DNA from: Schmidtea polychroa
Lineage: Eukaryota
Assembly (NCBI GenBank): GCA_044892525.1
Contig: CM097885.1
Coordinates: 35,280,001 to 35,344,000, forward strand
Direction of reading: 5' to 3'
DNA: 64,000 bases
The translations under genes were made by a program, and so were the position numbers. This document shows positions 1-34,926 of this stretch, piece by piece. Each line of letters begins with the position of its first letter. Positions within the stretch are counted from its first letter, which is position 1. The notes under the pieces are model-generated. The model searched no databases. It saw only the letters and a list, made by a program, of their open reading frames with translations, and had not been told where the DNA came from.

Positions 1-312
1 AGAGCAATGCTGATCTAATATTTGATTCGGAATATGATATGTTTTATCATAATTACGGATAATAAAGATACCGCTACATGTTTTCATAGCATTCCTTTTG
101 AAATCAATCTTACATTGACTATAAAATGGGAATGTATTGTACACTAATGTAAAATCTTGCAGTGCAACTTCCCAGTCACCATTTAAAGAAATCGGATTCT
201 GGAGATTGACCATGAATTTACTGGCTTGATTATCTGGATGAATAAGCGGGCAACTATTGCTTGGTAAAATAGTATAAAAATTCACTTTACTAGATCCTTT
301 TCTGATATACAT
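1..312 (-). CDS. Polinton minor capsid protein (penton), N-terminal part; open to window edge
   Basis: Manual translation NFYTILPSNSCPLIHPDNQASKFMVNLQNPISLNGDWEVALQDF matches the Polinton penton N-terminal signature; paralogous to 10326..11030. Confidence 0.85.
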   Translation of the reverse strand, partial: MYIRKGSSKVNFYTILPSNSCPLIHPDNQASKFMVNLQNPISLNGDWEVALQDFTLVYNTFPFYSQCKIDFKRNAMKTCSGIFIIRNYDKTYHIPNQILDQHCS

Positions 313-910
313 GATGGGTTTTGATAACTATGCCATTTAACATAATATTGTTTATCCTTGCCGACCTTTTTAGTTTTCAATATCTTTTGAATTCTAAATA
401 CTTTTGGGGGAGGAATAACTTGTAATTCTTGCTCATAAAACTTTCCTTGTACAATATTGTTATCATAATCACTGATGACATACATTACAGGATTCTGACT
501 AGTATTTATTTTTGAAATTACAAAGACTTCATCACTCCAATTTGTATCGAAATTTTTAATAAATGGTGATGCACTAATTTTACTAATTCTAACATGGTCA
601 CCGACTTTATATTTAGGTTTTGCAATTTTTACAGATTTCTTAGAAGTCAATGATGTTTTTGATGTAATATCAACCGGTCTCAATCCATTCAGTCCTCGAT
701 GTGATGAATGATTATAACTTGTTATTATTTTCGGTAAAGCATTTACCCATTTTTTATTACCTTGATGCACGAATAATTTCTTTAATCTCTCTCTCAATGT
801 TCTGTTAAATCTTTCAACGTGGGCAGCTTTGTATTGAGAATGTACCGAGTAATGGTTTATTTTCAATTTATTGAGGATTTCCTTGACTTTACTGTTGTAG
901 AATTCTTTAC

Positions 911-914
911 CTAA

Positions 915-982
<68 letters not shown>
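911..982 (-). other. 72-nt GT-AG intron made of (ATT)n inside the integrase
   Basis: TTAG|GTATTATT...ATTTTAG|GTAAAGAA; removal converts the poly-Ile run into the canonical QTDLGKEF catalytic motif. Confidence 0.85.
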
Positions 983-1572
983 CTAAATCCGTTTGCAAGT
1001 TATTAGGATGTCCATCTTTAAATAAATCATTAACAGCTTTAGACATTTCATCTGCAGATTTTGCCTTGACGGGTATTGCTCTGGCAAACTGACTGAATAC
1101 ATCAATACATGTTAAAATATATTTATACCCATTGTTAATTTTCGAATAGGGTATCATCTCCATCAAATCCATTTGCCATAAATCATGGTAAAATATTAGT
1201 TGTCTCGCGTCTGTGTGCGCTTTTTTCTTTGTTTTGGTTGTGTGCGCACACAGACGCGTAAAATTAAAATGTAGAAATTTTTAATCCGATCCTCGCGTCT
1301 GTGTGCGCTTTTCTTTTCTTTGTGTTTGGCTGTGTGCACACACAGACGCGAGCAAGAGGTAAGTTGTTAATCTTTTAGATTTTAGATTTTTATCGATTTT
1401 GAATTTGTTAATTAGAGTTGGAATTTTATCGACGTTTGGAATGAATGATGATTAATTTGAATACATGTGGCTATTGCAATAAAGAGAGTTGTTAAAGATG
1501 GCAATGGAACTCGAGTTGTTGAACTCTTATGGATTTGGTTTTTCGTTTTGTATTATGAGCTTCCGATTAAAG

Positions 1573-1776
1573 ATGGCAACATCTAAATATAACGGGGGAT
1601 TGATGGTTCTCGGTGATTTAGTGGCAAGGTTGAATAGAACCCGCAGCAAAATGGAAATAGAAACTATTTGTAAAGACGATGTTATCAGATCTATCAAATC
1701 TATTAAAATTCTGGGTAATGGATTCTCTCTAATCACATTTTCTCGAGACCGGCAATTAGTTCAATCTGTACCTGAG
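1573..1776 (+). pseudogene. SNF8: ESCRT-II subunit SNF8/Vps22 fragment
   Basis: NGGLMVLGDL...DDVIRSIKSIKILGNGF...LVQSVPE resembles the SNF8 segment NGGLITLEEL...DDLIRAIKKLKALGTGF...LIQSVP. Confidence 0.8.
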
Positions 1777-1833
1777 CAAAATGGCCGAATCGATATTGTT
1801 TTGTGTTCAGAAAGGAATAATATGAGATCAAAT

Positions 1834-2110
1834 TTATGTGTAGCTACACAAAGACAGGTTCCAGATAAAATGATTGAGAAGAGTTCAGCTACAAGATTGT
1901 TTAATATTACTGAAAGTACTGGAAGTGTTATGACTGGTATGATCCCTGATTATCGATCTCAAGTATGTCGTGCACAAATGGAAGCAGCTCGATTTAGATA
2001 TAAACATGGATATGAAATGCCTTGCGACATAATAAGTCGTTCTGTTGCGGATATTAAGCAGTTTTCTACCCAATCAACCGAGATGCGACCATTAGGTTGT
2101 TCAATGATGA
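1834..2110 (+). pseudogene. PSMA6: Proteasome subunit alpha-6 fragment
   Basis: TQRQVPDKM..TRLFNITE..VMTGM..RSQV.RAQMEAA.FRYKHGYEMP.D..EMRPLGC is the PSMA6 pattern. Confidence 0.88.
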
Positions 2111-2215
2111 CATTATCTCCTGGTATGGACACGGAAAAACTGTTATTATTCAGAAATAAATTGATTATGTGTTATTATGAATTTGAAAATGAAGAAATCA
2201 TTTATTCAATATGTT

Positions 2216-2416
2216 TTATAAAATCTTGTTGGGAATCGTTTCTGCATTGGTTTGTTCAAACTGTGGGTTTCTTTTTTCGAATTCGGAACTCTTTTGTTTA
2301 ATTTTGCCACTCCACCGAAACCTGCTTCGTCTTCGGGGTTCGTCCAAATCTTCTCCATTACAACAAGAAGATTTAATATTAAATTTAATGTCTGGTAATG
2401 AAGGATTAGCACCCAT
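2216..2416 (-). CDS. Small ORF with N-myristoylation motif (MGANPS), overlapping the integrase start
   Basis: MGxxxS motif; starts 4 nt after the pX-like stop. Confidence 0.4.
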   Translation of the reverse strand: MGANPSLPDIKFNIKSSCCNGEDLDEPRRRSRFRWSGKIKQKSSEFEKRNPQFEQTNAETIPNKIL

Positions 2417-2927: not shown

Positions 2928-3566
2928 TCAAATTTGTTTTGAACTTTGTTTATAAACCATGGCACCTTTTGGGTTGAAAATATCTGTTTTTACTCGTATA
3001 TCATCAGGACATTGTTGTGTGAAATCGAGAAATATATACCCATGAGGTATTTTCGTAGCATCTTGAAATGCATTGATAAGAAAATTACGGTTATTAGGGT
3101 ATGCTTGTCGTCCAAGAAAATCAATGACAGTTGCATCTCTAGGATTCTTGAAAATAACTAGATATTGTACATTTAAATTACGTGTTCGATGTGCACCACC
3201 TTGATGAAATAGATTTTGTGTTATGAAAATAACTGTTACACCAACATGTCTGCTGATTTTTGTGAATAAATTATTAAAATCCTTTTCTTTCTTGGCTTCT
3301 TGATACAAATCATCGATAATGATGACATCATCTTTCTTCAAACGACTTGACCAGTTTTTATCAAAACCCTTTACTATTTTCATGTTTTTCAATTGACAGA
3401 AACTTGATTGCGTCAATCCATGTTCTTCATCGGCGCCCCTATGCCAATAAATATTGTTGAATTTTGTTTTGAACAAATTTGATTTTAGTAATTTACAAAC
3501 AAATAATGTTTTTCCGCTACCACTTGGACCAACGATTTGGTATACTGCATCATTTCGTAATTCCAT
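2928..3566 (-). CDS. A32/FtsK-like DNA packaging ATPase
   Basis: Walker A GPSGSGKT, Walker B IIIDD, SRH, ITQN, FKNPRD motifs; intact 212 aa. Confidence 0.95.
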   Translation of the reverse strand: MELRNDAVYQIVGPSGSGKTLFVCKLLKSNLFKTKFNNIYWHRGADEEHGLTQSSFCQLKNMKIVKGFDKNWSSRLKKDDVIIIDDLYQEAKKEKDFNNLFTKISRHVGVTVIFITQNLFHQGGAHRTRNLNVQYLVIFKNPRDATVIDFLGRQAYPNNRNFLINAFQDATKIPHGYIFLDFTQQCPDDIRVKTDIFNPKGAMVYKQSSKQI

Positions 3567-3672: not shown

Positions 3673-4126
3673 ATCCCTTCAAATATAAATTACAGGGCAA
3701 AAGCTGATGTATCAAAAATGATATTTCCAATGTGGAAACCACAACAACTCATCAATAGAAGTAAAAAATATCCAATAATATATTTCAAAACTGGTAAATG
3801 TAGAATTATGGGATGTAAGGAAATAATCAAAGCTAGTGAATATAATGTTTATGATTTAGAAATACAATCGATAACCGTAACTTCCGATATAGGTTTTTCT
3901 TGTAATTTAAATAAATTGGCTAAATTAATACCATGCTTTTACGAACCAGAATTATTTTCAGCTTTGAGATTATATAAAATATAACCCTATATTCGCTAGC
4001 GGTAAGATAGTAATTCTTGGAATAAAAAATATTGATTACAAATGTATAGTTGATAATATCATATCTGAAATTAAATCAATAATTGAAGGAAATGAATTTT
4101 TAGATTTTTTATTATCACTTAATTAA
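3673..4126 (+). pseudogene. TATA-binding protein (TBP)-like homologue; frameshift/small deletion near 3985 and no in-frame ATG at the predicted start
   Basis: SNINY (cf. QNIV), IIYFKTGKCRIMGCK (repeat 1), IQSITVTSDIGF..LNKLA, FYEPELFSAL, then FASGKIVILG from 3992 in another frame (repeat 2). Confidence 0.8.
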
Positions 4127-4993: not shown

Positions 4994-5413
4994 ATGACAA
5001 AGAAAATTTCAAGCACTGAAAAACCAAAAGTTGTTCCAGAACTTGTACAACCTGTTCAAATGTTCCACAACTACAAAATGTATTTTTTAAAAGAAGAAAT
5101 CAATATGAAATTGGTGTCACCGATCAAGCTAATTCCTACCCAATTTCAATTTTTTTCCAGCACACTTTCAATGATAGATATTACATCTATTGATGAGGTT
5201 TTCAAACGGTTGAATACGAATCTATCCTGTAATCAACATGCATTTTTCAACAACCGATATGCAAGATTTTATGATTCCTTTGATGAAATCAGCTTCAAAG
5301 AAAACGAAAATTGGTATATAACAATTGCAATCCAAGGATATAAAGTTGATAATAATGATGTGTATTCTCCAATTTGGAAAATTATGTCTGCTAGACTTTC
5401 ACAAATATTTTAA
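4994..5413 (+). CDS. Possible OB-fold single-stranded DNA-binding protein
   Basis: Intact 139 aa with CCAAT (4927) and TATAAAA (~4953) upstream. C-terminal ITIAIQGY....YSPIWKIM resembles the terminal strands of T7 gp2.5-like viral SSBs (inference). Confidence 0.45.
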   Translation: MTKKISSTEKPKVVPELVQPVQMFHNYKMYFLKEEINMKLVSPIKLIPTQFQFFSSTLSMIDITSIDEVFKRLNTNLSCNQHAFFNNRYARFYDSFDEISFKENENWYITIAIQGYKVDNNDVYSPIWKIMSARLSQIF

Positions 5414-5546: not shown

Positions 5547-5899
5547 ATGACTACAGAAAAAGGTTAACATGATTAATTAATTTCCAAATTATTTATTATT
5601 TAGAATTATTAATCAACTTTTTGTTGGCAAAATTAGCAGAAATATCTGGTGTAAAAATTGAGGATGTATTATCTGTTACAAATGCATTAAATATCGGCTG
5701 GGTAGTTGAGAGTCAAGATTCAGGATTTGACGATCAGGAAGAAACCGATACTCAAGAAATTGATGACGAAATCTATGAACCTATAGATGAACCTATAGAG
5801 GAACCTAAAGATAATATTACGAATGATTGTATTGATCATGTCGTTGAAAATATAATGAAATGTGGAGATGACGACTGCGAATGTGTTAATAAATTTTAG
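5547..5899 (+). CDS. Acidic small cargo protein, two exons (intron 5563-5603)
   Basis: ATG ACT ACA GAA AAA G|gt...tag|AA TTA joins in frame with ORF 5621; D/E-rich, DSGFD motif, C-terminal Cys residues. Confidence 0.7.
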
Positions 5900-5959
5900 T
5901 TAATTATTGTTTGTAAATTTATTTAAAATTTTATTTAAAAATCAAACAAAATAACTATA

Positions 5960-6480
5960 TTAATTTTTATTTAAAAATCGGGATAAAACATACAAAATAG
6001 CAACACCTGTTGCAAGTTTTATATAGTTTTTAAATTTCTTTTTCTGTTCATCTATTTCCTTCGCATTTCTGGCGAGTTGATTCAGTACGCCCCATCCGCC
6101 ATTGGCTTCAATCCATGGTTGAAACTTTGACTTGATTATCTAGAAAATAAATATTAATAAAATATAGATTATAAAAGTATTACTTCTTGAGACCACTGAT
6201 AATAATGTTCCGAGTCCCATAAACTTTTTTCGATTATGACCTTCATATAAGCGAACCCTACTAGTATTCGGGTCCACTTCATCTCATCGTCACATAGGCA
6301 GTTAAAAATCCTATGAAAATATAATTTTTTCGTTTCGAGACAATCGGAATTGAGCACATCCTCATAATCGATATGATTTCCTTCGATAATCTTTTCGGTC
6401 CGGTCCACCAGGAAACTCAGGCTTTCCACAATCTTCTTGTTGATAACTTCGCTTAAAAGATTTTCCATAAAATGAGACAT
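5960..6480 (-). CDS. Bcl-2 family protein, 158 aa, two exons (6480-6184 and 6139-5960), tail-anchored
   Basis: BH1-like DDEMKWTRILVGFAY. After a 44-nt GT-AG intron comes BH2 PWIEANGGW, then TM YIKLATGVAILYVLSRF and LNKN*. No stops or frameshifts. Confidence 0.85.
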
Positions 6481-6708
6481 TTCTACAATAATTTAAAATA
6501 TGATGTTTTATTTATACTAATACCGTATGATTTTGATTGGTTGATAGACTATAAATGTAAAAGAAAGGTTTTGATTTGATACACCATGAAAACTATATTC
6601 ATATTGCTAATTATTATAACGAGTGTGTGCTAACACAATACTATATATTTTATAATATTCGACTATGTTTTTAGTTAACCATGATTTGTGATAGAAATTT
6701 GAAATTAT

Positions 6709-6839: not shown

Positions 6840-7444
6840 GAGCTATCGATGAGAACACTAACTTGTTGCATGTGTGGACACTAATAATATTTTTACACAT
6901 TGTGTGTGACCATAGGGGGACAGAATATCTTGTCGGATAGACTATATATACAAAGTATGTGCAATAATTTTATTTTGTCAACTTAATCGTCAAAATAAGT
7001 TTTTTAAAATTTAAAATTTAAAATACCGCAACGTAATATATTCAATAATTAAAATATAATTAAAATTTAAAATACCGCAACGTAATATATTTAATAATTA
7101 AAATATAATTAAAATTTAAAATACCGCAACGTAATATATTTAATAATTAAAATATAATTAAATTTTAAAATACCGCAACGTAATATATTTTAAAAGTATG
7201 ATGTGTCTTTGTTCAAAATTTTCCCCTTTGTTATGCAATATGTCTTTGTTACGTAATATGTCTTTGTTTCAATGACCTTGATGAGTCATATGTCCTTGTT
7301 ACGTAATTTTTAAAATAAAATAAAAAAAAATTTTAAAAAAATTAAAAACCCCCTCCCCGGGGTGGAGGTATGACGTCATATGTCTTTGTGACGTCATCGA
7401 TGGCGTCATATGTCTTTGTTCCCGGCTCCACACATTACCCTACT
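6840..7444. repeat. Polinton terminal/subterminal region (probable TIR)
   Basis: Colinear homology with ~30745-31302 and ~18100-18258; TATGTCTTTGTT repeats, GC block, TGACGTCA at 7371 and 7389. Confidence 0.75.
7008..7193. repeat. 49-bp tandem repeat (~3.7 copies) containing AAAATACCGCAACGTAAT
   Basis: CCG core recurs at 7026, 7075, 7124 and 7173. Confidence 0.9.
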
Positions 7445-9730
7445 GCTAACAAACGCAATAGAAATGAAAAACCCTTCACCAAGGCAGATTAGACAAATCA
7501 ATTTCATTTCACAATTCAACTGCACAATAAACTACGCAGCAGGGAAATCAAACATAGCAGCAGATGCTCTATCCAGAATTGAAAGTGACATAAACGCTCT
7601 AGAATTCGGAGAAATAATCGAATCGGATCAAATCAAATCCAGACAAACCGATACATTAAGCAAACTGCCTACTAAAAACAGCCTTAAACTACAGGAACTC
7701 GACGGAATATGGCACGATGTCTCCAACGAAAGCAACAAACGAATCCTACTACCCGAAGAACTCCGACAAGACTGCATAAAAAAGATACATGCTATCAATC
7801 ATCCGGGAAACAAAAAAACATTCGAGTTAATACATAACAAATATGTATGGCCTCACATGCGGGAAGACATCAAGAATTACGTCAAAAGTTGCCACAGCTG
7901 TCAATTAAATAAAACAACAAAAAAACCCAAAACACAAAAAGTAAACTTCCCAAGCAGTGAAGCGTTTGAAACAATACACACAGACGTAGTAGGACCACTA
8001 CTACCAAACGACACTATAAATATCTACTAACAATTATAGACAGAAAAACCAATTGGTTCGAAGCGATACCAATAAAAGAAATTACAGCAAAAAATATCTG
8101 CGAAATGATCGAACTAAACTGGATAGCTCGTTACGGCCAACCGAAAACAATCATAACTGATCAAGGCAGACAATTCGAATCAGAAATGTTCAAAATAATG
8201 TGCAATAAATACAATATCAAAAAAAACAGCTTACAACCCACAATCAAATGGGAAAATTGAACGGTTTCACAGAACATTAAAAGAAAGCATCAGGACAAAA
8301 GCCAATGACCAAAACTGGTTAATCCAACTTCCAACAATATTAATCGGACTAAGAAATAGCCCAAACTCAACAGATAATGAAAGTCCAGCATACAAAATTT
8401 TCGGAAAAGCAACAAACTTGCCATCACTTAAATCAGATACAAACAAAACCACCGAAAACAGCAAACAAATAACAAACAAAAATAGCGAAACCACCGAACA
8501 GAAACCAAAAGGAATTTTAAAAAGAAGACCGGACTCCGAATTAGACGGAAAAATAGTATTAACAACAGAGTTCATCTTAATAAAAAAACCATTCACAAAA
8601 GGATTCGAATCCAAATACGAGGGTCCATTCAAACTCCTAGAAATTAACAAAAACGTCGCTACAATAATCCAAAACAACAACAAAATAAAAATAAACATAA
8701 GACGAATAAAACCCTATCACCAAAACGAAAACCCACAAAACAACCGACCAGAAAACAAAACACAAACACAAACGAAAACACAATCAATTCACAAAAGAAT
8801 CACATTTAACACCAAAAACTTAATCAAACTATATTTGATAAAGATACAATAATCACACCCCTATACAAAAAACGATACAGTGATTGTCTTAATTAAAACA
8901 CCAACAAAAAAAACACACGCACAAACAATGCCAATTGTACAGTTTTTTATTAATATTCTTGTAAATATAGAGTAAATCGTAAGTTTTTGTTGTATACAGC
9001 TTGTAAATACAAAGAAACAGAAACAAAATACATAAAAACATAAAAAAAGGTTATTGAATGTAATTTTTTTTATGTTACTTTTTATTGATTCATGTTAACC
9101 TCCGGTTTTAAAGGGGGAAGTTATGTAATGTAAAGCGATTTTTATTAATATTTTAGTGTTCACAATTAGGAATTGTGAATACTAAAATATAAAATGCCAC
9201 CATCTGTGGAAATCCAGATTTTTAAAAAAAAACTATATAGCGATAATTTACTATAGGAAATAAAAAAATCGAAAGAAATTGAATGATTAATTATATGTCT
9301 TCAAAACTTCTGTTTGTAAGTTCAAATGCTAAACAAATTTGATAAAGAAACTGAATTAAGAAATTGAATTAAGAAACTGAATTAAGAAATTGAATTAAGA
9401 AACTGAATTAAGAAATTGAATTAAGAAACTGAATTAAGAAATTGAATTAAGGAACTGAATTAAGAAATTGAATTAAGAAACTGAATTAAGAAATCGAATT
9501 AAGAAACTGAATTGAGAAATTGAATTAAGCTGAATTGATCCAAGTAGTATTATTTTTATTTTGTTCAGTAAACGTGTGATATTATTTGAATATTGTTGAA
9601 TATTAATTTTGTTTTTTATTTATTATTGTTACATCACATAGCACAGCCTGCACCCCGATTGTCCCGCCACAAGTTTTAACGGAGACTCTTTCGGGCCCAT
9701 CAATTTTCTTATTAAACATACAACTTAATA
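7445..9730 (+). mobile_element. Gypsy LTR retrotransposon 3' half (end of RNase H, integrase, PPT, 3' LTR)
   Basis: RQIRQINFISQF..GKSNIAADALSR, H-H-C-C zinc domain, IHTDVVGPL, TDQGRQFES, KIERFHRTLK, YEGPF; PPT AAAGGGGGAAG at 9110-9120; LTR end approximate. Confidence 0.9.
9347..9535. repeat. 13-bp tandem repeat GAAA(C/T)TGAATTAA in the LTR, alternating variants
   Basis: About 14 contiguous units. Confidence 0.9.
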
Positions 9731-10356
9731 TCTACAATAGCAAAGTTAAGCAAATCCTTGATTAACTGAAAATAAATCACTACTCGGTATATTCTCAATA
9801 CAAAGCTGCCCATGTTGAAAGATTTAATCGAACATTGAGAGATAGATTAAAGAAATTGTTCGTGCATCAAGGTAATAAAAAATGGGTAAATGTTTTACCA
9901 AAAATAATAACCAGTTATAATCATTCATCACATCGAGGACTGAATGGATTGAGACCTGTTGATATCACATCTAAAACATTATTGACTTCTAAAAAATCTG
10001 TAAAAATTGCAAAACCGAAATATAAAGTCGGTGACCATGTTAGAATTAGTAAAATTAGTGCGTCACCATTTATTAAAATTTTCGATACAAATTGGAGTGA
10101 TGTAATTGGAGTTTTTGTAATTTCGAAAATAAATACTAAACAGAATCCTGTAATGTATGTCATCAAAGATAATGATAATAATATTGTTCAAGGGAAATTT
10201 TATGAGCTAGAATTACAAGTCATTCCTCCTCCAAAAGTATTTAGAATTCAAAAAATATTGAAAACTAAAAAGCTCGGCAAGGAAAAACAATAATATGTTA
10301 AATGGCATGGTGATCAAACCCCGTCATGGATATCAGCAATAGACCTAGTAAAGTGA
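9731..10356 (+). pseudogene. Polinton B integrase, 5'-truncated
   Basis: Close paralogue of 282-910 with premature stops; begins at FYNSKVK at the Gypsy junction. Confidence 0.9.
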
Positions 10357-11030
10357 ATTTTTATACCATTTTACCAAGCAACAGTTGTCCATTAATTCGT
10401 CCAGACAATCAAGCAAGCAAATTCATAATCGAACTCCAAAACCCTATCTATTTGGATAGTGACTGGGAAGTTGCTCTGTTGGATTTTACATTTGTATACA
10501 ATTTATTCCCAATCTATAGCAAATCAGTTATTGAATATAATAAGAAAGTAGCAGTAAAAGAATATATAAATGTTCTTATAGATAAAGATAGTTATAACTT
10601 AACGAGTTCATCGAAATCAATTAAACCCATAATTTATGATGATGGTCAATATTTATACGTGAATTGCTTGAATCACCCATTCGAATTTTTATTTTCTACA
10701 ACGGCTAAACGTCTTGGATTTACTGAAGTACGTAATGTATATTATGATACAGTCAAAATAAATCTCGCTGCATTTCCAAAAACTTATAATTTAGTGGAAT
10801 TCAAATTTAAGCTGTCATACATTGAAATAACTGAGCATGCATATACTTTTAAAGATGATTTATATATTACAGAACTCGAACAATTACAAAGTTATTTAGA
10901 AACAAATTGTAGCGATATTTTAACAGTTTTCGAGCTTCAAAAAGATAAAGTATTTAGATTTAGTATAAATTCGAATCTTAGTCAAGTTAAATTTGACTCA
11001 AATTTGACAAAAACATTAGGTGAACATTAG
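10326..11030 (+). CDS. Polinton B minor capsid (penton), 3'-truncated
   Basis: FYTILPSNS...DWEVALLDF signature directly after the integrase. Confidence 0.85.
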   Translation: MDISNRPSKVNFYTILPSNSCPLIRPDNQASKFIIELQNPIYLDSDWEVALLDFTFVYNLFPIYSKSVIEYNKKVAVKEYINVLIDKDSYNLTSSSKSIKPIIYDDGQYLYVNCLNHPFEFLFSTTAKRLGFTEVRNVYYDTVKINLAAFPKTYNLVEFKFKLSYIEITEHAYTFKDDLYITELEQLQSYLETNCSDILTVFELQKDKVFRFSINSNLSQVKFDSNLTKTLGEH

Positions 11031-17982: not shown

Positions 17983-18258
17983 AGTAGGGTAATGTGTGTA
18001 CCCGGGTGAAACCTTTGCATAGATCTTTTCAAGACCTTTCGAATGATACCCTGTTTTGAAAGTTTGACCTTATTTATCCTTTGGAAATTAATGAACGCGT
18101 AATATGTCTTTGTTACGTAATTTTAAAAAAAATTTTAAAAAAAATTTAAAAAAAATTTTAACCCCCGGGGTAGGGGGCTGGGGTATAACGTAATCTCCTT
18201 TGTGACGTCATCGATTACGTAATAGTTCTTTGTTTCCGGGTCCACACATTACCCTACT
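17983..18258. mobile_element. 276-bp mini-element with Polinton termini at both ends
   Basis: AGTAGGGTAATGTGTG...CACACATTACCCTACT; right ~160 bp similar to 7250-7444. Confidence 0.75.
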
Positions 18259-30335: not shown

Positions 30336-31302
30336 ATTTCGAGGGCGGCATCCGTGGTGGACTAACTTTTGTAAATAAACACTATGTAAAAACAGACCCG
30401 GATACGGCATTGCTTTACATGGATATAAATAATTTATACGGTTGGCCTTTAAGTCAACCTTTACCATGCAGTAACTTTGAATGGGTTACAGGTTATAATT
30501 TATTAAATAATATAATTGTTGAGTGCACAACGGTAGATTTAGATCTGCTTGATTATGGTTATCCATAGAAGTGGATTTAGAAATAATGACGTCAATTCAC
30601 GATAAACTGAATAATCTTCCCGTTGCCGCTGAAAATATGTGTCTACCCGTTTCGAAAATAGAGAAGAGTAGTATATATAATAGTAGTATATATAATAATA
30701 ATAAATATTCCTTTGAACTTGCATTTGAAAATAATAATTTACGACATGTTGAGTGTGAGCAGTACCCTTGTGAGTAATACCCATAGGAGGGGGGGCAGAA
30801 TATTTTGTCCGATAGCCTAGGAGTATATATAATAATAATAATGCAAAGTATGTTCAATAATTTTATTATGTCTTTGTTAAGTCAACTTTAGTTTCAAATT
30901 GTGTTTTAAAATATATTTAAATTTTAAAATACCGCAACGTAATATATTTAATAATTATGATGAGTCATGTGTCTTTGTTCTCTAAAATTTCTTTGTTTAA
31001 ATTGATCAGTCATATGTCTTTGTTTCTTAAAATGTTTTTGTTATATAATATGTTTCTGTTATGCAATAATCATTTATTACATAATGTGTCTTTGTTACGT
31101 AATAATGCTTTGTTATGTGATAGTTCTTTGTTATGTAATGTGTCTTTGTTGTGAAATAGTTTCTTATTATGTAATGTTACTTTTGTATGTAATATGTCTT
31201 TGTTGCGTAAATTTTAAAAATACATAAAATGACGTAATTCCCTGTGTGGCATCATCGATTATGTAATAGTTCTTTGTTCCCGGGTCTACATGTTACCCTA
31301 CT
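30336..31302 (+). mobile_element. Internally deleted Polinton piece: polB fragment plus right terminus
   Basis: GGIRGGL..NKHY..YMDINNLYGW.LSQPLP..HDKLNNLPVA (diverged from the 22-23 kb polB), then a terminal region ending TTACCCTACT. Confidence 0.85.
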
Positions 31303-32036: not shown

Positions 32037-34926
32037 AGTTATGGAAAGTGGTTTGTTTTAATAATATAGTTTTTAGCGTTTTTTTGGAAAATATATTTTA
32101 ACTGCATTTATTATTGATCGTATGAATTTAGAAGTTGAAGACATCATAACTGGCGACCACGCCAAGGAAATTAATGCAATAGGAAAAAAGAAAGGAACTA
32201 AGAATATGTTAGATTCCTTGCCAAAACAAGCACGTGAGATGCTAAATTTTAATGTCAGAAAGTTTGACGGAAAAGTTGGATCTGAAGCCGAACTTTGGCT
32301 AAAGGATATTATGGAATGGCTGAGAATAGAAGATCAAAGTCTAGTAGACGCATTGGATCTTTTGTTGACAGATGCGGCATCGATGTTATGGGAAGCAGCG
32401 AAAATAGCGATGAAGACCGATGAAATGGCAAAAGAGTGGTTTATAGAAACTTTTACAGTAAGGAAAACCATTACTAACAAGATTGTGGAACTAGCTCAAA
32501 TTCAGCAAGAAAAAGATGAAAGATTCCAAGTCTTCGAAATACGAGTAAGAAGTTTAGTTAAAAGTGTATTTAGCTCTGGAATGTCTGATGAACAGATTGT
32601 TCTAGACATTATTTCAAACAGAGCGAAAGACGATAGAGTAAAAGAAATATTCTTATCAGGGAAAGTGACAAGTTTTGAAGATGCCAGGGATATGGCAAAA
32701 ATTCAGGAGAAGATCGAGATGACGAATGACAATAAATTCAATATTGATGCCATAAGAAGAGACTCTTACGCATCAGTGATGAAAAATGGTAAATTCGAGG
32801 GTAGACGAGACCAAAGAAGAATTGTGAAGACAACTGCACATCAACGCGACGAACACCGAGAGATTAATCATGAGAGGAATAGACCTGGTAATGGTTGGTT
32901 TGTACCAATTGTAAATGAAGATAAGAATGAAAATGAGCGGTATAGAGGACGATACGAGACAGGAGAACCATAGAGAAGAATACCTACAGTATCGCTTAAA
33001 GATATTGCAAGAAGGTTATTTAATGACAGCAAAGGAAGAGATTCGCCTCATCCAGTGAAACTGACACCAGGTCAGTGTTTTTGTTGTGGAGAAAAAGGGC
33101 ACCGGCGTTTTGAATGTCCTATGAAAGACAAATGTCTAATCTGTGGAAAAGAAGGTCATGGATTCAGAGATTGTTTTTTGCTTAAAAATAGAAATGGATA
33201 TCAGAAGAGAGTGGCATGTATTTACGAAGAAGATCACGAAAGAAATAATGGTGATTTCACAGAAGATTTATACAGTAATTACGAAGAAACGATAAAAAAA
33301 TCAATGGATAAACCAAAAAACAAGGACGATCCCATTGCTTTCATTTAGTCAGTGGGGTCGACACAATAATCAGTAGAAAGAATCGAAATGAAGACATGAT
33401 GCAGAAGATGTATGAGACGACAGACAGAAGAAAGTGGAGTAAGATTGTAATAAACATGACGGCGATTGACGTGCTTTGGGACTCTGGAGCGTCAGTATCA
33501 GTTATGAGTGAAAAAAGTTGGACAAAGATTGGGAAACCGAGGTTGAAGCAGAGCACAATTTCTCTTTGTGGAGTATTTTCGACGGGAATGAAAAGACTCA
33601 TTACAGAAGACTGAGTCGATGACAAAACTCTTAGAAAAGCAACAAGATGATGTAGATTTCATTCACATGACAAGAGTGTTACAGGGAGAAGAGGAAAAAA
33701 ATGACTTGAATAAAAAGAAATTTCCTTTCAATTTGCATAACAACATAAATTAGAAGATGGGTTTTTATTATTAGAGAAGAATGGTTAAGATGTCATCCTT
33801 GTGCCGATAGACTACTCAAATACGTTAGGTAAAGGAATACATACTGAAATGTGTCACATTGGAGTAAAGAAATTAAGTAGCTATATTGAGCAACATATTT
33901 TTTGGCCAAACATGCAAGAAACTATACAAAACTGTTTGAGAGTATGTGAGATATGCTGCAGAAGGAAAATAGTGCAGGAGAAGACAAAGGAACGATTGTT
34001 GCCGATAATAAGTTCAGACTTTTTAGAGAAGTTGGTCATTGATATAGCACACATGAAGAATGGTGGAGTGTACAATTATATGCTAGTTATCATTGATCGT
34101 TTTAGAAAAATGGTCAGTTTGACAGCACTGGAGAGACAAGACGAGAGATCGATTTTCAAAGCCATTTTGGAGAAGTGGATATACCGTATCGGAAAACCGC
34201 GAAATTGTCTGTCAGACTGAGGGAAGAACTTCGATAGTGGTTTTATGAAAACAAATCTAGGAAGACTGGGTATTACGCAACAGTTCAGTTCACCATATCA
34301 GCATCAATCTAACGGTTTAGTTGAGAGAACAATACGGACAGTCAGACTTGCTGGCAACATCATTAACAGGTGGACTAGGAGAGCGAAATTGGGCGGAGTT
34401 ACTTCCTCGAGTAGAATTTTGTATCAACGTGACACAACAGAGCGCGATGGGATTTTCTCCATTTGAAATTGTTTTTGGGAGGAAGATTAACCTTCATTCA
34501 ACATTGCCTCAGACGACATTGGATACAGTTGAGATACATAGATTGGTAAGAGAGAACAGTGAGAAAGCAGCTAAACGAATGAAAGAGATGGAAACAGAGA
34601 AGAGAACGAATCGATATTTCATGGTGGGGGAGAAAGTATTAGTTCGGAAAGAACCACAAAATCGCGACAAAGATGGACTACAGTATGAAGGTCCTTTTGT
34701 CATATCAAAGTTTGTGTCAGAGCACCAGGTGGAATTGAGTGACGGGACGACAAAGAAACTCAGACGAATTGAATGGCTTAAGAGATGGGCAGTTCCTTAA
34801 ATAAGGGGGAGAGTTATGGAAAGTGGTTTGTTTTAATAATATTGTTTTTAGCGTTTTTTTGGAAAATATATTTTAACTGCATTTATTATTGATCTTATGA
34901 ATTTAGAAGTTGAAGACATCATAACT
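32037..34926 (+). mobile_element. Non-autonomous Gypsy element: 115-bp LTRs, gag, protease and integrase, no RT/RNase H
   Basis: LTRs 32037-32151 and 34812-34926 (AGTTA..TAACT, 2 mismatches); TSD AAATC; PBS TGGCGACCAC; PPT AAGGGGGAG; two CCHC knuckles; WDSGAS; HHCC and DDE integrase with YEGPF. Confidence 0.93.

Follow-up and report, generated by a model that had tools for sequence, protein, structure and literature searches.

Bcl2 and IAP homologues have been observed in adintoviruses (Starrett et al. 2021, PMC8502044), with Bcl2 labels in Suppl. Fig. S2, and for adintoviruses associated with mammals the accessible text of PMC11071296 says that the majority seem to carry homologues of anti-apoptotic genes, candidate oncogenes or both. 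The usual mode of action of viral Bcl-2 proteins is to trap pro-apoptotic family members in the groove, as summarized in the accessible part of PMC7022251. For planarians, a BCL2-like motif has been described in the Burro giant LTR retrotransposons (PMC6431247, accessible part). The main text of PMC8502044 mentions no Schmidtea, planarian or flatworm, and the available part of its supplement mentions no Schmidtea or Dugesia. We found no report of a planarian Polinton Bcl-2 in the literature; Repbase, subscription papers and the slide supplements of Starrett et al. may hold one. It is an open question whether the life of Polintons in animal cells is virus-like, and an anti-death gene under purifying selection across Polinton families would be indirect evidence in favor of it.

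Here we describe a Bcl-2-family gene from the planarian Schmidtea polychroa. The window, i.e. the whole stretch of DNA that was analysed, comprises 64,000 nucleotides (G000:C1:35280001-35344000) of a 781-Mb assembly. We propose, with a probability of roughly 60%, that the gene is a viral Bcl-2 (vBcl-2) which planarian Polintons/adintoviruses carry as an accessory gene; it would have been taken from the host's pro-survival bcl2-1, or from the ancestor of that gene, and serve as an apoptosis inhibitor.

The carrier element and the gene model

The gene resides in a Polinton of 12,329 bp that extends from C1:35275116 to position 7444 of the window. The right TIR (6845-7444) has an AGTAG-type terminus and shares 470 of 483 aligned bases with the left end, and the hexamer GCTAAC directly behind it (7445-7450, plus strand) also precedes the left end as a 6-bp TSD; both features belong to the list given for Polintons in the accessible part of PMC8097293. 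The terminus that the initial annotation had placed at 7444 is confirmed by this matching end 12.3 kb away and by the TSD. Three typical proteins complete the picture: an rve integrase with chromodomain (282-1172, minus strand; Pfam rve E 0.0017, below the cut-off, and Chromo E 0.0006), the frame of which is broken by a microsatellite-rich insert, an A32/FtsK-like packaging ATPase (2928-3566, minus strand; Pox_A32 E 1.8e-7) and, left of the window, an adenain protease (Peptidase_C5 E 7e-5). The element continues to the left through a gene whose 5' part occupies 1-312 (minus strand) and which we take to be a minor capsid (penton) gene.

A capsid-like gene and a C-terminal remnant of PolB also lie left of the window. 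The former is 75% identical to the query from a second Polinton family, termed family B (L055-L060, L063), which has capsid-like, adenain and PolB-like genes. In the ESM Atlas, the family-B capsid-like query reached 0.98 against clusters in which 15-24% of the members carry DJR-like_dom (double jelly roll, the fold of the Polinton major capsid), a recognition below threshold, and the capsid-like ORF had 0 matches among PDB sequences. The PolB remnant is 53% identical to a 1,389-aa ORF of family B, in which we spotted by eye motifs that we take to be PolB-like; Pfam gave no PolB match for this ORF at E 0.01. Because PolB is reduced to a remnant, the window copy is considered non-autonomous.

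The Bcl-2 gene points inward and is flanked by the core genes on one side and the right TIR on the other, in the position that the initial annotation had assigned to it. Its usual neighbor is a 139-aa ORF of no known family (4994-5413, plus strand; no Pfam match of weight), which was present next to it in 26 of the 29 close copies other than that of the window and, with 32-33% identity, at 5 of 6 loci of family B. Nearer to the gene, and convergent with it, is a small acidic open frame (5573-5896, plus strand) of 108 codons from stop to stop, with a similar frame in L077. A TBP-like ORF (3718-3984, plus strand; Pfam TBP E 8e-7) continues in another frame in the window copy, and a TBP-like gene stands beside the Bcl-2 cassette in both Polinton families (L055:2521-2988, TBP E 2e-14).

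The Polinton was inserted into the pol gene of an LTR retrotransposon, with RT/RNase H left of it and the integrase zinc finger right of it (7451-8030, plus strand). Further mobile DNA is found in the window. An ORF at 1498-2301 (plus strand) fuses EAP30/Vps36 and proteasome-subunit fragments; its DNA is a repeat, 95-99% identical among the best 40 of 1,350 candidates and often present twice in the same orientation at a distance of about 4 or 6.5 kb, which may be an LTR with captured host fragments inserted into the Polinton. Two more Polinton-type termini (18185-18258 and 31229-31302) and an inverted integrase/penton-like block (9731-11030; 84-93% similar) derived from other Polinton copies have no Bcl-2 match near them within the window. 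Finally, 32037-34926 resembles an LTR retrotransposon, with direct repeats of 115 nt at a distance of 2.8 kb and frames labelled by eye as gag-, protease- and integrase-like.

The Bcl-2 gene is encoded on the minus strand. Exon 1 (6480-6184) comprises 99 codons from the ATG with zero stops and encodes a short N-terminal helix, a helix at the BH3 position and the BH1-like segment KWTR (KWTRILVGF). A predicted phase-0 GT-AG intron of 44 nt follows (6183-6140), and exon 2 (6139-5960; 59 codons and a stop) encodes BH2 with the sequence WIEANGGW, a linker and a predicted hydrophobic C-terminal anchor between basic residues. Splicing would yield a product of 158 aa, compared with 103 aa for the unspliced ORF. 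Restoration of the frame alone is weak proof of the junction, since in a chance control 18 GT-AG pairs restored an open frame to the same stop, among which 6183/6140 yields the longest product. The junction is fixed by colinearity with the host protein, by a constant GT-AG boundary despite variation in intron length, and by the intronless version in family B. Exon 1 aligns with residues 40-126 and exon 2 with residues 127-182 of host bcl2-1 (E 2e-11 for exon 2), free of gaps and with the exons abutting at 126/127. GT and AG were present at the same codon boundary in all 30 close copies (window copy counted), in 14/14 further copies and in the 3/3 gene-bearing copies picked by their ATPase, with intron lengths of 30, 39, 42, 44, 45, 46, 48, 51 and 54 nt, both in and out of frame. 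As a reading of the DNA, we thus regard the two-exon Bcl-2-family gene as confirmed, real and well supported.

The 44-nt intron, the 158-aa frame and the three motifs named in the initial annotation were borne out by the exon reading, the host alignment and the copies, with KWTRILVGF in exon 1 and the other two in exon 2. The CCAAT box it had reported at 6536 is present at 6540-6536 (minus strand), followed by TATAAA at 6516-6511; both would be promoter boxes. All 5 of the other Polinton copies that were tested have a CCAAT as well, located at -57 to -69, and none was found in the 130 nt upstream of the host gene.

Copies, selection and origin of the cargo

Exon 1 is present in the genome in at least 150 copies that are 90-100% identical, 145 of the 150 being without internal stop; these are the best-scoring 150 of 2,420 candidates and hence biased towards intact ones. 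The gene is therefore far from single-copy, and the initial annotation, which would have fallen with a single-copy gene absent from other copies of this Polinton family, stands on this point. Among the 30 close copies, exon 2 was measured in 29 and was fully open in 22, carried one in-frame deletion in 1 and was broken in 6. Pooled pN/pS over 29 close copies (94-98% identical) was 0.23. Pairwise dN/dS with the further copies was 0.08-0.26 in 14/14 comparisons, which share ancestry and are not independent, at dS values of up to 1.5. As judged from these substitution ratios, the gene is shown to have been under long purifying selection inside the element.

The Bcl-2 gene of family B is intronless, encodes 144 aa and occupies the same slot with the same two neighbors in 5 of 6 loci, at about 22-30% identity to the gene of the window family. 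A search of the assembly (G000) for an intronless processed copy of the window's own family gave 0 matches.

For a survey of the cargo, 14 Polinton copies were taken as about every tenth of 150 listed ATPase matches (5,037 candidates), a sample biased towards the youngest subfamily. The Bcl-2 gene was found at the expected slot in 3 of them and was absent there in 11, so the view that this Polinton always carries the gene was rejected: it is optional, not obligatory, cargo. Polinton copies can thus spread in the genome without it, as 11 of these 14 young copies have no gene at the slot. The initial annotation knew of no Bcl-2 as standard Polinton cargo; the novelty that this implied is not supported, because Bcl2 and IAP homologues in adintoviruses were reported in 2021.

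The 11 copies without the gene (L077, L079-L088) part from the window sequence at position 5900, or 5904 in one case, where left-arm-like sequence takes over, which suggests that a single arm-copying event lengthened the TIR over the gene. Head-to-head gene pairs 6-10 kb apart may represent the reverse of this event. In L007 hardly any sequence separates the terminus from the Bcl-2 promoter, and the 139-aa neighbor is missing.

The closest host protein (P0006) is ACW83059.1 / UniRef C9WPR4 from Schmidtea mediterranea, named bcl2-1 in the supplement of PMC4993586, according to the accessible part of which RNAi against bcl2-1 leads to total lysis. The orthologue in our assembly (L044) is one two-exon locus, 86-91% identical to the S. 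mediterranea protein, with an intron directly after GGW of BH2. The host paralogues compared came from a Pfam scan of the genome (best 150 of 909 candidates), and of these L044 gave the best match to each of the two exons as well as to family B. An intron after BH2 GGW was found in 5 of the 6 host genes testable by pattern. The Polinton copies examined lack this host intron, and the window family's own intron lies 16 codons earlier. Because the post-BH2 intron is missing from these copies and family B is intronless, the sequences point to capture through an mRNA, and such a capture followed by gain of an intron appears to be the simplest reading.

Phylogenetic analysis placed the Polinton rows together with bcl2-1 on one side, with a support of 78/81 that was not starred. 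A single Polinton clade was neither shown nor rejected (AU p 0.338), which leaves one capture or two. This tree was built without the Burro pair and without L045 and L047, which are partial host rows; its Polinton group included L070, and its rows contained no other flatworm or adintovirus Bcl2. A tree of all 20 rows did not resolve the deep nodes. At the level of similarity, bcl2-1 is shown to be the most similar host paralogue, and bcl2-1 or its ancestor is the likely donor. An origin of the Bcl-2 gene from Burro was not supported; the presumed Burro BCL2 domain forms a separate long branch.

Two further groups of Bcl-2 relatives were observed in the genome. L070 (G000:C2:119840200-119841400; labelled PolC in the trees) is a third, intronless relative whose frame contains a single internal stop and whose identity is 52% to family B and 43-46% to bcl2-1; no Polinton gene was found in 5.8 kb of its flanks. 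Seven near-identical Bcl-2 matches with canonical NWGR and no post-BH2 intron lie within 0.9 Mb at G000:C4:89.95-90.83 Mb (L033-L039).

Protein features and possible functions

The assignment to the Bcl-2 family, as proposed by the initial annotation, is supported by profile searches. Scanned apart, the two exons of the window gene match the Pfam Bcl-2 profile (PF00452) in colinear order (profile 12-67, E 0.018, and 86-100, E 0.28) with 16 and 12.2 bits, each under the cut-off of 31.4 bits. This cut-off is passed by L051 (34.6) and L048 (34.4), two in-frame-intron copies translated with X at the intron stop, and by L056 of family B (32.7). Against the sequences of solved structures and without any host sequence, L056 alone retrieved Bcl-xL (E 1.7e-4) and L051 retrieved A1/Bfl-1 (E 0.0047); a profile including the host protein reached Bcl-xL at E 1e-8, and the best 60 of 137 matches all belonged to the Bcl-2 family. 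Top matches of exon 1 in the ESM Atlas were Bcl-2 clusters at 0.93, a recognition below threshold.

AlphaFold models of L056 and of L051 (with X) are all-helical and of low confidence (pLDDT 59.6 and 53.1). With these models, the Foldseek matches listed were all of the Bcl-2 family, the best at E 0.064 and a TM of about 0.3, with nothing at E 0.001 or better. Wide VIA-align searches with the same low-confidence models gave best Z values of 6.6 and 7.1 to unrelated helical repeats and no Bcl-2 chain among the best 50 in either. Searches for relatives outside returned 1, 3 and 1 proteins by word index and 1 by the full HMMER library, all of them close exon-1 copies or the host protein, and 0 were confirmed among 25 pattern matches in IMG/VR.

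The BH2 motif W-I-x-x-x-G-G-W is present as WIEANGGW, which aligns with BH2 of Bcl-xL. Canonical BH1 is NWGR, with an important glycine. This glycine is absent from the window gene (KWTR), from host bcl2-1 (RWSR) and from family B (CWSK), while the tryptophan and the arginine or lysine are retained in all three. Since an essential host member also lacks the glycine, its absence is no bar to family membership; groove binding cannot be assumed, because the glycine is replaced by threonine in the window gene and by serine in bcl2-1 and family B. A hydrophobic stretch of 17 residues (mean Kyte-Doolittle 1.61) ends 3 residues from the C-terminus, aligns with the tail of the host protein and is predicted to form a membrane anchor. 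The helix at the BH3 position has the L-x-x-x-x-D spacing of BH3-type motifs, absent in host bcl2-1, with valine and not glycine before the aspartate.

A function as apoptosis inhibitor is a reasonable reading of these features, helped by the fact that the closest host gene is the essential bcl2-1, RNAi against which reportedly acts by raising apoptosis (work by Pellettieri from 2010). We hypothesize that the gene was captured via a host mRNA and that the window family later gained the short intron before BH2. Upon de-repression of the element, host Pol II would transcribe the gene from the CCAAT and TATA boxes and the intron would be spliced. The tail anchor would direct the protein to mitochondrial or ER membranes, where it could restrain Bak/Bax-type or BH3-only proteins. 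The cell would then survive Polinton DNA replication, integration and particle assembly, as with E1B-19K for adenovirus. Passively copied derivatives would not need the gene and would often lose it. Transcription, splicing, localisation and partner binding are thus all features that we infer from the DNA.

The Bcl-2 fold could instead have taken on a role outside mitochondrial apoptosis, such as blocking autophagy or innate signalling, which some poxvirus and herpesvirus Bcl-2 proteins do. We consider this unlikely, but several observations agree with it. Apart from the replaced BH1 glycine, the identities point to fast change: the window family is 26-30% identical to bcl2-1 and about 22-30% to family B, whereas the capsid-like genes of the two Polinton families share 75%. 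Such functions are known for viral Bcl-2 folds (PMC7022251, accessible part), and in the ESM Atlas a cluster with Poxv_Bcl-2-like on 11% of its members ranks third, a weak indication. However, BH2 and the tail anchor are retained in host-like spacing, and host bcl2-1 is essential despite the same lack of glycine. NF-kB-inhibiting Bcl-2 folds are, in the accessible part of PMC7022251, not found outside Poxviridae.

It is quite unlikely that the gene is now a silent passenger, selected in ancestral replicating elements and inactive in present copies due to piRNA silencing. In S. mediterranea, SMEDWI-2 keeps Polintons silent (PMC8532177, accessible part), exon 2 is broken in 6 of the 30 close copies and the youngest subfamily sampled lacks the gene. 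Nevertheless, the pN/pS ratio is still 0.23 among copies that are 94-98% identical, and CCAAT box and splice sites are kept. This alternative concerns present expression and is compatible with the biochemistry of an apoptosis inhibitor.

Very doubtful is a pro-death or dominant-negative protein that would lyse the cell for particle release or jam host bcl2-1. The L-x-x-x-x-D spacing in the BH3-position helix, not shared by bcl2-1, could be taken as a sign of it, but the residue before the aspartate is valine instead of glycine, and at least 150 integrated copies of a gene that kills would come at a high cost. Viral Bcl-2 proteins known to regulate apoptosis mostly promote survival (PMC7022251, accessible part). 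Hardly credible is a 103-aa product without splicing, or a decayed host pseudogene trapped in the element. In favor of this, the forms annotated by public gene callers are all of 103-112 aa (P0003-P0005), and the frame can be restored in 18 ways. Against it, the GT-AG pair stays at the same codon boundary over intron lengths of 30 to 54 nt, both in and out of frame, and the protein sequence of exon 2 is conserved (74-91% identity) and meets that of exon 1 on the host protein with no residue between.

Starting from the preferred reading as apoptosis inhibitor, we speculate further, and regard it as unlikely, that the hundreds of dispersed, spliceable bcl2-1 derivatives form a PIWI-gated reservoir of survival genes. 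It would be switched on when Polintons are de-repressed, i.e. during differentiation or upon loss of SMEDWI-2, and would keep element-bearing cells alive. If true, such a reservoir would alter how cells compete and turn over in an animal whose renewal depends on somatic stem cells. A Polinton accessory gene would then have a live function and a cell-level drive mechanism, with the Burro BCL2 domain as a convergent second case. Because RNAi and piRNA de-repression are routine in planarians, the function is testable in the host.

Comparison with known systems

The adintovirus Bcl2 genes of PMC8502044 resemble the planarian gene in their carrier, which has integrase, FtsK-like ATPase, adenain and capsid genes. 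The likeness is one of description, not of aligned sequences, and the accessible parts of that report describe neither a donor gene nor an intron. From its sequence, the planarian Polinton Bcl-2 looks like a local capture. Host bcl2-1 of S. mediterranea is colinear with it over residues 40-182, has the same layout of BH2, linker and tail and likewise has the BH1 glycine replaced. In contrast to the Polinton gene, which encodes 158 aa at 26-30% identity and has a different intron, bcl2-1 is a single cellular locus for 184 aa with an intron of about 3 kb after BH2.

Adenovirus E1B-19K and the vBcl-2 proteins of herpes- and poxviruses are also encoded by small Bcl-2-family genes in dsDNA virus genomes (PMC7022251, accessible part), and E1B-19K is the functional model for our proposal. 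Their activity was tested experimentally, whereas the Polinton gene is known from sequence. In the ESM Atlas, one cluster in which 20% of the members carry Adeno_E1B_19K scored 0.85, which is a lead only and no direct sequence link.

Burro is a second class of planarian mobile elements with a BCL2-like module, but there it is fused in frame into a polyprotein and sits on a long branch of its own. Similarity between exon 1 of the window gene and the presumed Burro BCL2 domain was weak (E 0.04), and we rejected the idea that it is the same cargo. Among the best 150 of 909 candidates, dozens of Pfam Bcl-2 matches lie in frames of 1,000-3,000 codons (up to about 3,090; e.g. L054, L065, L075). These long frames are consistent with Burro, to which L065 and L075 presumably belong.

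Vertebrate Maverick genes are intronless (PMC8097293, accessible part). The cargo of nematode Mavericks (wasp proteases and KRMA kinases; bioRxiv 10.1101/2022.07.12.499685) is, like the gene described here, host-derived, intron-containing and near the TIR. It belongs to other protein families, the accessible text contains no 'Bcl', and the Polinton intron is not at the host position. Compared with these systems, Bcl2 as cargo is no new concept, and the apparent novelty lies in the likely donor and in an intron that the host gene lacks. Our findings add a likely donor with a lethal RNAi phenotype and hundreds of copies, in which the host intron has been lost and another one gained.
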